Source: Escherichia coli
GTDB lineage: Bacteria; Pseudomonadota; Gammaproteobacteria; Enterobacterales; Enterobacteriaceae
NCBI RefSeq assembly: GCF_003334335.1
Contig: NZ_QOWQ01000013.1
Direction: 5' to 3' (one strand)
Length of the DNA stretch: 64,000 nucleotides
The notes below the pieces were generated by a model that saw only the letters and a program-made list of their open reading frames with translations, searched no databases and was not told the origin of the DNA. Positions 7,721-18,317 of this stretch are shown piece by piece (positions within the stretch are counted from its first letter, which is position 1; each line of letters starts with the position of its first letter). The position numbers were made by a program, and so were the translations under genes.

Positions 7721-8635
7721 TCACTCAAAATAGTCCATATCCAGTTTCGGCACCTTCAACAAACGTGAAGAAACCCCTACTTCGTTTTCGATCATTAAGT
7801 GCACCAGGCGTTCCCCATCAACCAACACCATACCCTCAACGGATTGGGCAAAGTCACGCGCCTGAGAAGTAAATCCAGAAGTGGTAATAAACACCCCACG
7901 TTTCGCTTTTTGCCCAGCCAGTGCGCCGTAAAATGCCTGTAATTCTGGCCTGCCTACAGTATTCTGCCAACGTTTTGCCTGAACATAAACTTTCTCCAGG
8001 CCAAGTTTATCAAGCGATATCACACCATCGATGCCACCATCTCCAGTACCGCCAACACGCTGCAAATCATCACGGTGGCCGCCATACCCCAGGCGATGCA
8101 AAACATCCAGAACAATGACTTCAAAGCGCGAAGGAGAAACCTGCAATAAGTTTTCCAGAGCCTCATCAGCCACCGCATCACGAAGCTCTTTTAGCGCCTG
8201 ATCTAACCGATCGTCCGGGCTGCTCTTTGCAAGTTCTTCATGATCGGGAGAGTCGGCTTTCGGATCTAAATCGACGGCATCCGGCCGTGACTTAAGTTTG
8301 ACATTCACAAAATCGAAGGCCAGATGGTTCGTCTCCTGCTCCGTCATTGGCTGGGGATGAGACGCAACCCAGTCAAAACCCGCAGGAGTCAGGCACCATT
8401 TGCCACGCGACAAACTTTGCGACAACCCGGCACGTTTTAAACGGTCATGCGCCCAGCCTGCACGATTTTTATAAACAAGTTGTCCGCTGGTAATGACTTT
8501 CGCTCGCTGGCTGTCATCCAGTCCTAATGCATCCGCGGCAGCCTCATGAACATCACGCGCGGCTGCACCTTCCGGTTTTGTCGCCAGATAACGCAGAACA
8601 GGTTCAATAAATTTGTCATAGGTTGGAACCGTCAT
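7721..8635 (-). CDS. mrr: Mrr modification-dependent (Type IV) restriction endonuclease
   Basis: 304-aa ORF; recognised as Mrr by sequence and by position next to hsdR. Confidence 0.93.
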   Translation of the reverse strand: MTVPTYDKFIEPVLRYLATKPEGAAARDVHEAAADALGLDDSQRAKVITSGQLVYKNRAGWAHDRLKRAGLSQSLSRGKWCLTPAGFDWVASHPQPMTEQETNHLAFDFVNVKLKSRPDAVDLDPKADSPDHEELAKSSPDDRLDQALKELRDAVADEALENLLQVSPSRFEVIVLDVLHRLGYGGHRDDLQRVGGTGDGGIDGVISLDKLGLEKVYVQAKRWQNTVGRPELQAFYGALAGQKAKRGVFITTSGFTSQARDFAQSVEGMVLVDGERLVHLMIENEVGVSSRLLKVPKLDMDYFE

Positions 8636-8822
8636 AGTACATCCTTGCAGAATCAGGTAGATGTTTTTCGGCTACTATAACACTACCAAAATAGGCGAAC
8701 ACGTTAGAAATGAGTCAGTTGCTGTGACCGTGGTCATTGCCCGGAAAGGTACAGAAAGCTAAGATGAGATGTTATGGGCCTTAAATATTTGGACAGGCCC
8801 GCACAGCAATGGATTAATAACA

Positions 8823-11800
8823 ATGATGAATAAATCCAATTTTGAATTCCTGAAGGGCGTCAACGACTTCACTTATGCCATCGCCTGTGCGGCGGAAAAT
8901 AACTACCCGGATGATCCCAACACGACGCTGATTAAAATGCGTATGTTTGGCGAAGCCACAGCGAAACATCTTGGTCTGTTACTCAACATCCCCCCTTGTG
9001 AGAATCAACACGATCTCCTGCGCGAACTCGGCAAAATCGCCTTCGTTGATGACAACATCCTCTCTGTATTCCACAAATTACGCCGCATTGGTAACCAGGC
9101 GGTGCACGAATATCATAACGATCTCGACGATGCCCAGATGTGTCTGCGGCTCGGGTTCCGCCTGGCTGTCTGGTACTACCGTCTGGTCACCAAAGATTAT
9201 GACTTCCCGGTGCCGGTGTTTGTGTTGCCGGAACGTGGCAAAAACCTCTATTACCAGGAAGTGCTGACGCTAAAACAACAGCTTGAACAGCAGGCGCGAG
9301 AAAAAGCGCAGACTCAGGCAGAAGTCGAAGCGCAACAGCAGAAGCTGGTTGCCCTGAACGGCTATATCGCCATTCTGGAAGGCAAACAGCAGGAAACAGA
9401 AGCGCAAACCCAGGCTCGCCTTGCGGCGCTGGAAGCACAGCTTGCCGAGAAGAACGCGGAACTGGCAAAACAGACCGAACAGGAACGTAAGGCTTACCAC
9501 AAAGAAATTACCGATCAGGCCATCAAGCGCACACTCAACCTTAGCGAAGAAGAGAGTCGCTTCCTGATTGACGCGCAACTGCGTAAAGCAGGCTGGCAGG
9601 CCGATAGCAAAACCCTGCGCTTCTCCAAAGGCGCGCGCCCGGAACCCGGCGTCAATAAAGCCATTGCCGAATGGCCGACCGGGAAAGATGAAACGGGTAA
9701 TCAGGGCTTTGCGGATTATGTGCTGTTTGTCGGCCTCAAGCCCATCGCGGTGGTAGAGGCGAAACGTAAAAATATCGACGTTCCCGGCAAGCTCAATGAG
9801 TCGTATCGCTACAGCAAATGCTTCGATAATGGCTTCCTGCGGGAAACCTTGCTTGAGCATTACTCGCCGGATGAAGTGCATGAAGCGGTGCCGGAGTATG
9901 AAACCAGCTGGCAGGACACCAGCGGCCAACAACGGTTTAAAATCCCCTTCTGCTACTCGACCAACGGGCGCGAATACCGCGCAGCAATGAAAACTAAAAG
10001 CGGCATCTGGTATCGCGACGTGCGTGATACCCGTAATATGTCGAAAGCCTTACCCGAGTGGCATCGCCCGGAAGAGCTGCTGGAAATGCTCGGCAGTGAA
10101 CCGCAAAAACAGAATCAGTGGTTTGCCGATAACCCTGGCATGAGCGAGCTGGGCCTGCGTTATTATCAGGAAGATGCCGTCCGCGCGGTTGAAAAGGCAA
10201 TCGTCAAGGGTCAACAAGAGATCCTGCTGGCGATGGCGACCGGTACCGGTAAAACCCGTACGGCAATCGCCATGATGTTCCGCCTGATCCAGTCCCAGCG
10301 TTTTAAACGCATTCTCTTCCTTGTCGACCGCCGTTCTCTTGGCGAGCAGGCGCTGGGGGCGTTTGAAGATACGCGTATTAACGGCGACACTTTCAACAGC
10401 ATTTTCGACATTAAAGGGCTGACGGATAAATTCCCCGAAGACAGCACCAAAATTCACGTTGCCACCGTACAGTCGCTGGTGAAACGCACCCTGCAATCAG
10501 ATGAACCGATGCCGGTGGCCCGTTACGACTGTATCGTCGTCGATGAAGCGCATCGCGGCTATATTCTCGATAAAGAGCAGACCGAAGGCGAACTGCAGTT
10601 TCGCAGCCAGCTGGATTATGTCTCTGCCTACCGTCGCATTCTCGATCACTTCGATGCGGTAAAAATCGCCCTCACCGCCACCCCGGCGCTGCATACTGTG
10701 CAGATTTTCGGCGAGCCGGTTTACCGTTATACCTACCGTACCGCGGTTATCGACGGTTTTCTGATCGACCAGGATCCGCCTATTCAGATCATCACCCGCA
10801 ACGCGCAGGAGGGGGTTTATCTCTCCAAAGGCGAGCAGGTAGAGCGCATCAGCCCGCAGGGAGAAGTGATCAACGACACCCTGGAAGACGATCAGGATTT
10901 TGAGGTCGCCGACTTTAACCGTGGCCTGGTGATCCCGGCGTTTAACCGCGCCGTCTGTAACGAACTCACCAATTATCTTGACCCGACCGGGTCACAAAAA
11001 ACGCTGGTCTTCTGCGTCACTAATGCCCATGCCGATATGGTGGTGGAAGAGCTGCGTGCCGCGTTCAAGAAAAAGTATCCGCAACTGGAGCACGACGCGA
11101 TCATCAAGATCACCGGTGATGCCGATAAAGACGCGCGCAAAGTGCAGACCATGATCACCCGCTTCAATAAAGAGCGGTTGCCCAATATCGTGGTGACCGT
11201 CGACCTGCTGACGACCGGCGTCGATATTCCGTCGATCTGTAATATCGTGTTCCTGCGTAAAGTACGCAGCCGCATTCTGTACGAACAGATGAAAGGCCGC
11301 GCCACGCGCTTATGCCCGGAGGTGAATAAAACTAGCTTTAAGATTTTTGACTGTGTCGATATCTACAGCACGCTGGAGAGCGTCGACACCATGCGTCCGG
11401 TGGTGGTGCGCCCGAAGGTGGAACTGCAAACGCTGGTCAACGAAATTACCGATTCAGAAACCTATAAAATCACCGAAGCGGATGGCCGCAGTTTTGCCGA
11501 GCACAGCCATGAACAACTGGTGGCGAAGCTCCAGCGCATCATCGGCCTGGCCACGTTTAACCGTGACCGCAGCGAAACGATAGATAAACAGGTGCGTCGT
11601 CTGGATGAGCTATGCCAGGACGCGGCGGGGGTGAACTTTAACGGCTTCGCCTCGCGTCTGCGGGAAAAAGGACCGCACTGGAGCGCCGAAGTCTTTAACA
11701 AACTGCCTGGCTTTATCGCCCGTCTGGAAAAGCTGAAAACCGATATCAACAATCTGAATGATGCGCCGATCTTCCTCGATATCGACGATGAAGTGGTGAG

Positions 11801-18056: not shown

Positions 18057-18152
18057 TCTGACGTCTTTCCGTGAAGCGATGATTTCGCAATAATAACCAC
18101 TTCCTTGTGGAGGTTATAGAGAAATCCTGTTTATCCGCGACGAACTGCCCCC

Positions 18153-18317
18153 TCACTCCACATCCTCCCTGCGTAACCCAATATCCCTCAACCGCTCATC
18201 ACTCATCTGCTGTAACACTCGTCGGGTCTGCATTTGCCGCCGCCAAAGCCTCACCGCCTGCCAGAGTTGCACAAGTCCAATAAACGGTGCTTTAGCTTTG
18301 TTTTCGTGAAATTCCAT
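18153..18317 (-). CDS. yjiS: DUF1127 small protein YjiS
   Basis: Not in ORF track (54 aa); manual translation of minus strand gives MEFHENKAKAPFIGLVQLWQAVRLWRRQMQTRRVLQQMSDERLRDIGLRREDVE. Confidence 0.8.
   Translation of the reverse strand: MEFHENKAKAPFIGLVQLWQAVRLWRRQMQTRRVLQQMSDERLRDIGLRREDVE

Follow-up and report, generated by a model that had tools for sequence, protein, structure and literature searches.

Positions 7721-18317 of the Escherichia coli DNA analysed here, a 64-kb stretch referred to below as the window, are the classical E. coli immigration control region (ICR), a swap-prone slot for restriction enzymes. Between yjiA and yjiS this interval encodes Mrr, a complete hsdR-hsdM-hsdS system of the EcoKI family (Type IA), the symE/symR pair with its LexA box and an intact GmrSD-like gene of 697 aa. 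We are highly confident in the overall reading of the locus as an ICR that combines three independent nucleic-acid barriers with an SOS-controlled, DNA-binding toxin pair, and that is remodelled by the exchange of whole cassettes. All units named in a first-pass annotation of this DNA were recovered at or near the places assigned to them, using PADLOC, NCBIfam, Pfam, Rfam and comparison with K-12. The features below include gene identities, intact reading frames and regulatory sites that were observed directly.

6719..7675, plus strand: yjiA (GTPase), the conserved left anchor; NCBIfam NF008578, 682 bits; 99.1% amino acid identity to K-12 YjiA
7684..7714, no strand assigned: REP-like hairpin where yjiA and mrr converge; ViennaRNA, 45-nt junction at -21.9 kcal/mol
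7721..8635, minus strand: mrr, Type IV methyl-dependent restriction endonuclease, 304 aa; PADLOC mREase_IV, 574 bits, E 1.9e-173
8636..8822, no strand assigned: divergent mrr/hsdR intergenic region, presumed from its position to hold both promoters
8823..12335, plus strand: hsdR, restriction subunit of 1170 aa, Type IA (EcoKI family); its open frame begins upstream at 8769
12336..12411, plus strand: short intergenic region between hsdR and hsdM, hairpin at 12367-12389; from alignment and folding
12412..14001, plus strand: hsdM, Type I methyltransferase subunit; PADLOC MTase_I, 764 bits
13998..15347, plus strand: hsdS, specificity subunit, 449 aa; PADLOC Specificity_I, 456 bits
15360..15389, plus strand: intrinsic terminator after hsdS; hairpin 15360-15380 with an 8-bp stem (6 GC pairs), then a T-run
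15480..15499, no strand assigned: LexA (SOS) box TACTGATGATATATCCAGGT upstream of symE; CTG-N10-CAG intact, 14/20 consensus matches
15504..15580, minus strand: symR antisense RNA; Rfam RF01809, 94.3 bits against a gathering score of 61, full length
15575..15916, plus strand: symE, SOS-induced AbrB/MazE-fold protein; NF010128, 229 bits against a cut-off of 132
15924..15949, no strand assigned: perfect 10-bp hairpin where symE and gmrSD converge; 46-nt junction at -20.2 and -19.6 kcal/mol on the two strands
15963..18056, minus strand: GmrSD-like Type IV restriction gene, 697 aa, intact; Pfam GmrSD_N at residues 9-222, GmrSD_C at 415-547, DUF5655 at 589-690
18153..18317, minus strand: yjiS (DUF1127), the right-hand flank; from its translation and the yjiS annotation in matching genomes
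18494..19906, plus strand: yjiR (MocR-like PLP-dependent regulator), flank; NCBIfam MocR-type hits and annotation in related genomes

The locus is the immigration control region

The restriction genes form a variable cluster directly to the right of yjiA, with yjiS and yjiR on the right-hand side, and the order of the flanks in matching genomes is btsT-yjiX-yjiA ... yjiS-yjiR-rpn-mdtM-yjiN. Strains with these flanks in common differ in the genes that lie between them. Both yjiA and yjiS had been put forward as conserved anchors, a role in which yjiA stands: the 12-kb query was matched in some part in 5,397 of the 5,426 complete E. coli genomes that make up our prevalence set, and the lowest-ranked matches consist of the yjiA part only. 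The yjiS-yjiR segment was found at 80% coverage or more in 3,533 of these genomes and is missing from about one-third of them, therefore yjiS is not a universal anchor.

The K-12 ICR (mrr-hsdR-hsdM-hsdS-symE-mcrB-mcrC-yjiV/yjiT) occupies the same slot beside yjiA, its mrr, hsdRMS, symE and symR have the same order and orientation, and its proteins are 94-99% identical to those of the window with the exception of HsdS, in which both target-recognition domains differ. In contrast to K-12, the window has a single gmrSD-DUF5655 gene in place of mcrBC and the decayed helicase genes, and its hsdR-hsdM spacer lacks the ERIC-like element of about 125 bp present in K-12-like strains, as seen in the alignment with NY1601 and 23AR0806. 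Such an arrangement has a precedent. He et al. (2015, Sci Rep, Fig. 8; PMC4437046) reported the mrr-hsdRMS-symE-gmrSD variant in APEC O1, UTI89, CFT073, 536 and other strains, in which the gene for the GmrSD homologue (APECO1_2080 / UTI89_C5048) is flanked by an endoribonuclease gene (symE), hsdS, hsdM, hsdR, mrr and a GTPase gene (yjiA), and mcrBC is absent. Because the same combination has already been described in other strains, the island is real but ordinary: the replacement of mcrBC by gmrSD was already known and the present description restates established knowledge, the cargo of the ICR having also been listed across 9,040 genomes in an EcoSal Plus review of 2025 (Table 3; PMC12707154). 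The window represents an E. coli with a textbook defence hotspot in a published configuration, and offers little that is new for the island itself; it differs from the variant of He et al. in that its alleles have diverged and its hsdS allele is nearly unique.

Mrr and a Type IA system with a rare specificity subunit

The Mrr protein is 99.3% identical to K-12 Mrr at the amino acid level, and the PADLOC mREase_IV match extends over its full length, consistent with K-12 orthology and with the Mrr_N and PD-(D/E)XK Mrr catalytic domains that define the family. The gene was found in 944 of the 5,426 genomes (17%), in 907 of them at 99% DNA identity or more (best 99.9%). A promoter scan of the divergent mrr/hsdR intergenic region (8636..8822) returned no strong consensus promoter.

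The hsdR, hsdM and hsdS genes are all intact. HsdR scores 1740 bits with NF008521 (cut-off 729) and 2815 bits with PADLOC REase_I, the EcoAI (Type IB) model stays below its own cut-off, and the assignment to Type IA follows the prototype EcoKI closely: HsdR has 99.2% amino acid identity to its K-12 counterpart with the same start (MMNKSNF), HsdM has 97.2% with a divergent patch at 12565-12864, and the conserved regions of HsdS are common to both. HsdS as a whole is only 45.5% identical to EcoKI HsdS and scores 558 bits with NF007278, under the cut-off of 662; its conserved regions alone match, and both target-recognition domains are divergent, with 12-36% identity per 25-residue block. Because these domains are unrelated to those of EcoKI, the recognition sequence must differ from that of EcoKI. 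Type IA hsdRM genes are present in 17% of the 5,426 genomes, and those of the window are at most 97.7% identical to all others; the hsdS allele was found in just two genomes (0.04%), with a best identity of 98.1%. So rare an allele predicts an uncatalogued Type I specificity, with a bearing on the transformability and the methylome of the strain.

symE/symR and the junction hairpins

The symE promoter region carries a predicted LexA operator, the 20-mer TACTGATGATATATCCAGGT, which is one mismatch away from the aligned K-12 sequence and is the sole such site in the 64-kb window. In K-12 the symE promoter has a published LexA site and symE is controlled by LexA (PMC1891008). SymR overlaps the 5' end of symE, whose start lies at 15575, and SymE is 93.8% identical to K-12 SymE. 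The SymR RNA, the 5'-end overlap and the LexA box of the type I toxin-antitoxin-like locus described by Kawano et al. (2007) are thus all conserved, and we saw no structural difference from it. symE occurs in 2,857 of the 5,426 genomes (53%). The symR RNA was the sole Rfam match between 6000 and 21000 (E at or below 0.1), therefore the interval holds no further known RNA. Counting symE/symR among the stacked defence units, as the first-pass annotation did, is an overstatement: SymE has no PADLOC match, and neither our analysis nor the literature searched yielded a defence role for it. Thompson et al. (2022), cited in PMC11894785, dispute its role as an RNase toxin, and according to later work the protein shows no RNase activity and behaves as a nucleoid-condensing DNA binder.

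Each unit had also been credited with its own terminator or hairpin. A generic promoter and terminator scan gave no enrichment of terminators over shuffled sequences (10 found against 15.5 expected), therefore the hairpins were checked junction by junction, which bore the statement out at four junctions out of five. Downstream of hsdS, a 53-nt stretch has a folding energy of -14.6 kcal/mol, and the hairpin between symE and gmrSD is likely a bidirectional terminator. The exception is the 96 nt between yjiS and gmrSD, where junction folding gave no strong hairpin.

An intact GmrSD-like gene with a DUF5655 domain

The GmrSD-like protein is a single chain in which the DUF262 (GmrS) domain is recognised by Pfam PF03235 (E 9.4e-35) and the motif DGQQR at residues 78-82, and the DUF1524 (GmrD) HNH domain by Pfam PF07510 (E 1.5e-26), IEHIMPQ at 456-462 and LGNLTL at 489-494. 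It has these features, a DUF262 NTPase with DGQQR and a DUF1524 HNH nuclease with (D/E)HxxP, in common with the GmrSD family (Eco94GmrSD/CT596 GmrSD, BrxU, SspE, HEC-06, RloF), and it resembles RloF in its association with Type I loci. Of the PADLOC models, Orf5 (PDLC02693) gave 740 bits, the HEC-06 models 208-226 bits over residues 8-555, and PDC-S18 matched the tail; as Orf5 outscores HEC-06, the protein is a relative of HEC-06, a PADLOC candidate with experimental antiphage activity, and not a member. The HEC-06 and Orf5 profiles (about 560 aa) match only residues 8-555 of the ICR protein and, unlike it, lack the C-terminal DUF5655 domain, for which a YjbR/YdhG-like fold is predicted. A PDB sequence search found no close solved relative and gave only weak N-terminal matches (9jfl, E 2e-12; SspE, about E 3e-06).

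gmrSD was found in 1,288 of the 5,426 genomes (24%). Comparison with the empty slot of Nissle 1917 places the breaks in homology near 15892 and 18148, which delimits an inserted segment of approximately 15893-18147. Under nearly every match, PGAP annotates a 387-aa 'GmrSD domain' CDS and a partial 'DUF262' pseudogene; we reject this split RefSeq annotation, as the ORF is intact in the window and, despite the split annotation, in nine of the eleven other E. coli copies examined (eight sampled complete genomes and the GTDB representative). Genuine lesions occur in O157:H7 FRIK944 (a 1-nt deletion) and in an O104:H4 sample (a stop at codon 239), and gmrSD is therefore dispensable. The intact copy in the window offers a practical full-length reference for this gene, which is routinely divided in two in RefSeq annotation.

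The non-enterobacterial GmrSD-DUF5655 relatives that we retrieved are about 700 aa long and 58-73% identical along their whole length. They come from Gammaproteobacteria, Cyanobacteria, Planctomycetota, Chloroflexota, CPR bacteria and methanogenic archaea, often from inside Type I operons, a conservation across phyla that is unusual for the GmrSD family. NTP-stimulated cleavage of DNA with modified cytosines (hmC or glucosyl-hmC) is a hallmark of GmrSD enzymes. The ICR homologue is just 24% identical to the characterised Eco94GmrSD (PMC4437046), therefore its substrate is not transferable by homology. In the literature searched we found no experimental test of the ICR homologue, and a search on DUF5655 returned unrelated work only.

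Population variability

The variability of the locus was observed directly. The whole arrangement, counted where at least 80% of the window's 12 kb was matched, occurs in 254 of the 5,426 complete genomes (4.7%), each unit is present in only a part of them, from 0.04% to 53%, and mcrBC is found in 11%. The content of the interval is clearly not invariant, and its description as a hypervariable hotspot is borne out. In the proposed tabulation of cargo across E. coli, the slot between these flanks holds at least seven different gene sets among the sampled genomes. Strains that are nearest in their flanking DNA have other cargo: the nearest of them (99.3% flank identity) has a brnA/brnT remnant, together with an Mrr-like PDC-S02 nuclease and a different Type I family, and lacks gmrSD. 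In ST2747-type genomes the mrr slot holds a 322-aa protein that has no match in Pfam, PADLOC or NCBIfam and is predicted only as a multi-pass membrane protein, beside a 63-aa ORF with no PADLOC or NCBIfam match.

The best match to 7000-19000 among the complete E. coli genomes is only 97.0% identical, which raised the possibility of an origin outside E. coli; the identity to E. coli of 99.3% in the left flank and of 99.9% in mrr led us to reject this reading. The hsdRM, symE and gmrSD genes of the window diverge by 2-3% in DNA from every complete genome searched, and sequence comparison places the low identity over 7000-19000 in local allelic divergence of these genes. The identity of the locus to other strains forms a mosaic, and comparison with the empty slot gives sharp cassette edges. 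In 23AR0806 the hsdS allele of the window is paired with mcrBC instead of gmrSD, and gmrSD in turn occurs with Type IA or Type IB hsd genes; the different partners of the hsdS allele in 23AR0806 and in the window show that the units reassort.

Discussion

We propose three independent barriers to incoming DNA. Mrr would cut DNA with foreign adenine or cytosine methylation, and the Type IA enzyme (HsdR2M2S1) would methylate its own bipartite site, set by the rare pair of HsdS target-recognition domains, and translocate and cut unmodified DNA. Type IA enzymes are defined by subunit complementation with EcoKI and by ATP-dependent cleavage at a distance from a bipartite site. symE would be kept in check by LexA together with the SymR antisense RNA. 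For Mrr, the Type I enzyme and SymE/SymR, these activities are suggested by the 94-99% identity to characterised K-12 proteins. For the GmrSD-like enzyme, family membership and predicted fold point to a ParB/Srx-type NTPase domain (DGQQR) joined to an HNH nuclease domain (EHxxP), with DUF5655 possibly acting as a DNA-binding module of YjbR/YdhG-like fold; the enzyme would most likely cut hypermodified phage DNA. Differences between strains would arise by replacement of whole cassettes via homologous recombination in the conserved segments yjiA, symE and yjiS-yjiR, as the mosaicism suggests. That the interval might be a discrete mobile genomic island, integrated in one piece at a specific site, would suit its defence-rich, strain-variable content, the Rpn-family nuclease gene just past yjiR in related genomes and the IS1 copies in some variants; however, integrase, tRNA and att-like repeat are all absent from the interval, the reassortment of hsdS and gmrSD with different partners speaks against one-piece transfer, and mrr is at least 99% identical to that of 907 genomes whereas the adjacent hsdRM is no more than 97.7% identical to any other. 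We regard one-piece integration as extremely unlikely and favour cassettes that are exchanged independently.

Two further readings concern gmrSD itself. The PGAP split and the lesions in FRIK944 and O104:H4 would suit a decayed remnant, in two fragments or as a pseudogene, which would leave only two working restriction systems in the island, but in the window the reading frame runs uninterrupted through all 697 codons and keeps both catalytic motifs, the other E. coli copies are for the most part equally intact, and full-length relatives of about 700 aa at 58-77% identity extend across phyla. Such full-length conservation is incompatible with decay, which we consider very unlikely. It is also conceivable, although doubtful, that GmrSD-DUF5655 serves the neighbouring Type I system as an accessory, stepping in for instance once the Type I enzyme has been inhibited or evaded, and is not a stand-alone Type IV enzyme. 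Among 80 genomes from other taxa, at least 27 have a relative of the window's HsdM within flanks of about 10 kb, several homologues sit inside a same-strand Type I operon (hsdM-hsdS-X-hsdR or hsdM-X-hsdS), often with overlapping stop and start codons, GmrSD genes have been published as enriched beside Type I genes (RloF; PMC4619093), and embedded genes have been proposed in the literature as back-up defences. In E. coli, however, gmrSD is convergent to hsd-symE with a hairpin in between and occurs with two different Type I families, and HEC-06 and BrxU are active alone when cloned, according to the literature. These observations favour an independent Type IV barrier at this locus.

With regard to the family at large, we put forward tentatively, as possible rather than probable, that GmrSD-DUF5655 constitutes an uncharacterised and exceptionally conserved subfamily of about 700 aa, often translationally coupled in Type I operons, whose C-terminal domain might recognise a DNA feature that is widespread, or link the nuclease with Type I enzymes. 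If true, its mode of action would be unlike that of the fast-evolving, T-even-specific GmrSD enzymes. The gene is common, occurring in about a quarter of complete E. coli genomes, and identification of its substrate would close a gap in the E. coli map of Type IV restriction.

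Gene content of the immigration control region

The locus is the classical immigration control region (ICR), and ORF listing and family searches recovered every unit that the first-pass annotation had named there, at the following coordinates:

6719-7675, yjiA, left flank of the set
7721-8635, minus strand, mrr (PADLOC Type IV model, full length, 574 bits)
8823-12335, plus strand, hsdR (NCBIfam EcoKI-type equivalog, 1740 bits against a cut-off of 729)
12412-14001, plus strand, hsdM, on the same strand as hsdR
13998-15347, plus strand, hsdS, on the same strand as hsdR and hsdM
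15480-15499, LexA site TACTGATGATATATCCAGGT, one base different from the aligned K-12 sequence
15504-15580, minus strand, symR, encoding SymR (Rfam, 94.3 bits against a gathering score of 61)
15575-15916, symE (NF010128, 229 bits against 132)
15963-18056, minus strand, gmrSD, an unbroken 697-codon frame
18153-18317, yjiS, right flank of the set

Mrr is 99.3% identical to the K-12 protein. The hsdR frame is open from 8769, with the K-12 start (MMNKSNF) at 8823, and HsdR and HsdM share 99.2% and 97.2% identity with their K-12 counterparts. HsdR passes the EcoKI-type model and falls below the threshold of the EcoAI-type model (NCBIfam), which, together with the near-identity to K-12, establishes the system as Type IA. 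SymR overlaps the symE start, and TACTGATGATATATCCAGGT is the sole 20-mer in the 64-kb window that combines CTG-N10-CAG with at least 14 of 20 LexA consensus matches; symE is known to be under LexA control (PMC1891008). Functions of the Mrr, Type IA and SymE/SymR units are predicted from how closely (94-99% identity) their proteins and RNA match those of K-12. The standing of SymE as a defence unit is unproven, because it had no PADLOC match and because later work, cited in PMC11894785, did not find RNase activity for it and showed non-specific DNA binding and nucleoid condensation.

The GmrSD-like protein contains the Pfam domains GmrSD_N (residues 9-222), GmrSD_C (415-547) and DUF5655 (589-690), and its NTPase and HNH motifs are intact (DGQQR at 78-82, IEHIMPQ at 456-462). 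Phage protection by its relative HEC-06 depends on DGQQR and EH motifs, whereas the window protein fits the PADLOC Orf5 model (740 bits) far better than HEC-06 (226 bits). Identity between the GmrSD homologue of the ICR and Eco94GmrSD is only 24% (PMC4437046), and no experimental test of the homologue was found in the literature searched. At nearly all gmrSD matches, RefSeq/PGAP annotates a 387-aa CDS together with a partial or 'frameshifted' DUF262 pseudogene (records under hits H31-H57, for example the retrieved loci L001 12119-14212, L002 12001-14094 and L095). The frame is nevertheless open throughout in the window and in nine of 11 other E. coli copies (those of eight sampled complete genomes and of the GTDB representative). 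We therefore consider the pseudogene reading very unlikely for the window copy, where the 697-codon frame is open and both motifs are intact. Genuine lesions among the 11 copies were confined to two pathogenic lineages, O157:H7 FRIK944 (L003 12001-14093; a 1-nt deletion at nucleotide 860) and O104:H4 FDAARGOS_349 (L093; a stop at codon 239).

The suggestion that each unit has its own terminator or hairpin holds at four of five junctions only. Junction folding identified a REP-like hairpin between yjiA and mrr (7684-7714; junction fold -21.9 kcal/mol), a GC hairpin 3' of hsdR (12367-12389), a canonical terminator with a T-run after hsdS (15360-15380; also found by the generic scan) and a perfect 10-bp hairpin at the convergent symE/gmrSD junction (15924-15949; about -20 kcal/mol on either strand). 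It returned no strong hairpin in the 96-nt gap between the codirectional yjiS and gmrSD genes. There is no statistical signal, as terminator-like sites in the generic scan numbered 10, against 15.5 in shuffled sequence.

Variability of the locus among E. coli genomes

The gene content confirmed here and the variability reported below, which supports the reading of the locus as a hypervariable island, are already known, as two publications cover the locus. He et al. 2015 (Fig. 8) placed a diverged GmrSD homologue (APECO1_2080, UTI89_C5048, c5421 and others) within the ICR, adjoining an endoribonuclease gene, hsdS, hsdM, hsdR, mrr and a GTPase gene, with mcrBC replaced (PMC4437046). [quoted passage not shown] The proposal that the slot is a hunting ground for new cargo is likewise already known. 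Our E. coli-only counts agree in kind with the Enterobacteriaceae figures of the review.

Table. Units detected among 5,426 complete E. coli genomes (query coverage at least 80%)
Unit: genomes
mrr: 944
Type IA hsdR-hsdM: 928
Type IB hsdR-hsdM: 941
Nissle-type hsdR: 863
symE/symR: 2,857
gmrSD of the window: 1,288
mcrBC: 582
yjiS-yjiR: 3,533
Whole arrangement (window 7000-19000): 254

These prevalences and the sampled loci clearly exclude an invariant gene content and order. The yjiS-yjiR segment (window 18100-19906) is missing, or covered below 80%, in about 35% of the complete genomes, which makes yjiN a better anchor than yjiS. The arrangements between the flanks were as follows:

K-12: mrr, Type IA hsd, symE, mcrBC and decayed helicase genes
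23AR0806: a K-12-like set with the helicase gene intact
O157:H7: a split second GmrSD-like gene, Type IB hsd, symE and gmrSD
ST2747: a membrane protein gene, Type IB hsd, symE and gmrSD
Nissle 1917 and 2014C-3075: brnAT, the Mrr-like PDC-S02 nuclease, a third Type I family and symE, with nothing between symE and yjiS
One sampled locus: a deleted remnant of the Nissle 1917/2014C-3075 arrangement
Some strains (L007 2254-4794): a penicillin G acylase gene alone between yjiA and yjiS, consistent with the non-defence cargo of the review
L009: an IS1-associated deletion up to mdtM that removed yjiS, yjiR and rpn

Comparison with the empty slot of Nissle showed that homology ends at about 15892, within the last symE codons, and at 18148, 5 bp beyond the yjiS stop, which gives a gmrSD cassette of about 2.25 kb. 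The mrr-equivalent slot of ST2747 (L002 4338-5538) holds a gene for a 322-aa predicted multi-pass membrane protein, which had no match in Pfam, PADLOC or NCBIfam, and an adjoining 63-aa ORF is named 'antitoxin' in some genomes. This uncharacterised ICR pair occurs in 409 of the 5,426 genomes at 80% coverage or more. The mrr slot of O157:H7 (L003 3741-5392) holds a second, distinct GmrSD-like gene, so that two GmrSD-type genes flank the Type IB system. This second gene is split in two, leaving 94 aa with DUF262 and 452 aa with HNH (PADLOC Orf5 and HEC-06 matches), and both GmrSD-type genes of this lineage appear to be broken.

Mosaicism and HsdS specificity

Across the 5,426 genomes, the best match to the 12-kb interval reached 97.0% identity. 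The left flank (1-7700) matches E. coli 2014C-3075 and others at 99.3%, and mrr reaches 99% identity or more in 907 genomes, while maximum identity is lower for hsdR-hsdM (97.7%), symE (96.9%) and gmrSD (97.9%), indicating an E. coli strain with locally divergent alleles. 2014C-3075, the strain nearest to the window in the flank, yet carries the Nissle-like cargo. Upstream of btsT, the flank contains a cluster of N-acyl-D-amino-acid deacylase and amino acid deaminase genes (1174-4037); as only 159 of the 5,426 genomes match 1-7700 at 80% or more, this is a second variable segment beside the ICR.

Sliding identity along the locus is mosaic. A 5' patch of hsdM (12565-12864), 88% identical to K-12 and NY1601 and 97.7% identical to 23AR0806, looks like a recombination tract within a conserved gene. 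The hsdR-hsdM spacer is 76 bp in the window (12336-12411) and about 200 bp in K-12, NY1601 and 23AR0806, the difference being accounted for by an insert of about 125 bp, which we take to resemble an ERIC/IRU repeat. HsdS is 45.5% identical to EcoKI HsdS, and the two proteins agree only in an N-terminal stub, a central region and the conserved C-terminal region; both target-recognition domains are unlike those of EcoKI. This hsdS allele was found in two of the 5,426 genomes at 80% coverage or more. In 23AR0806 (L005 9001-10350) it goes together with mcrBC and a large DEAD/DEAH helicase gene and not with gmrSD, which shows that the cassettes reassort.

The GmrSD-DUF5655 subfamily

The residual interest of the locus lies in this rare HsdS specificity and in a GmrSD-DUF5655 subfamily that is uncharacterised and highly conserved. 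Relatives that span the full length (about 700 aa) have the three domains of the window protein; identity is 96% for E. albertii, 83% for Citrobacter amalonaticus and 77% for a second E. coli allele. Outside the enterobacteria, identities of 58-73% were found, including in Idiomarina, Marinobacter and Halomonas-group genera (72-73%), cyanobacteria, Planctomycetota, Chloroflexota, Actinomycetota, Saccharibacteria (69%), WWE3 (62%), Methanosaeta (70%) and Methanosarcina (65%); as retrieval was biased to close relatives, these values do not represent the full spread of the family. When 68 non-enterobacterial homologues are compared with the window protein segment by segment, identity averages 68% for GmrSD_N, 69% for both the linker and GmrSD_C, and 64% for DUF5655. 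An alignment of 73 sequences, among them the window protein and its relatives from enterobacteria, shows no variation at 130 of 697 positions. Such even, full-length conservation across phyla is unusual for a restriction-type gene, and identity at this level between E. coli and archaeal or CPR copies implies horizontal transfer under strong constraint.

Among 80 loci with gmrSD relatives (L011-L090), at least 27 carry a relative of the window HsdM within their flanks. In several, a same-strand Type I operon embeds the gmrSD homologue (X) with overlapping stop and start codons, in the orders hsdM-hsdS-X-hsdR or hsdM-X-hsdS in other taxa (within L016-L090, for example L051 6462-15549; L030 7857-13536; L041, L045, L060, L064 and L071), and a general association of GmrSD/RloF genes with Type I loci has been published (PMC4619093).

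Copies of gmrSD 97-98% identical to that of the window also occur in metagenome-assembled genomes labelled Bacillota (L012) and Collinsella (L014), the L012 contig additionally holding the neighbouring genes symE, yjiA and those of Type I hsd. E. coli contamination during binning is the probable source of both contigs.
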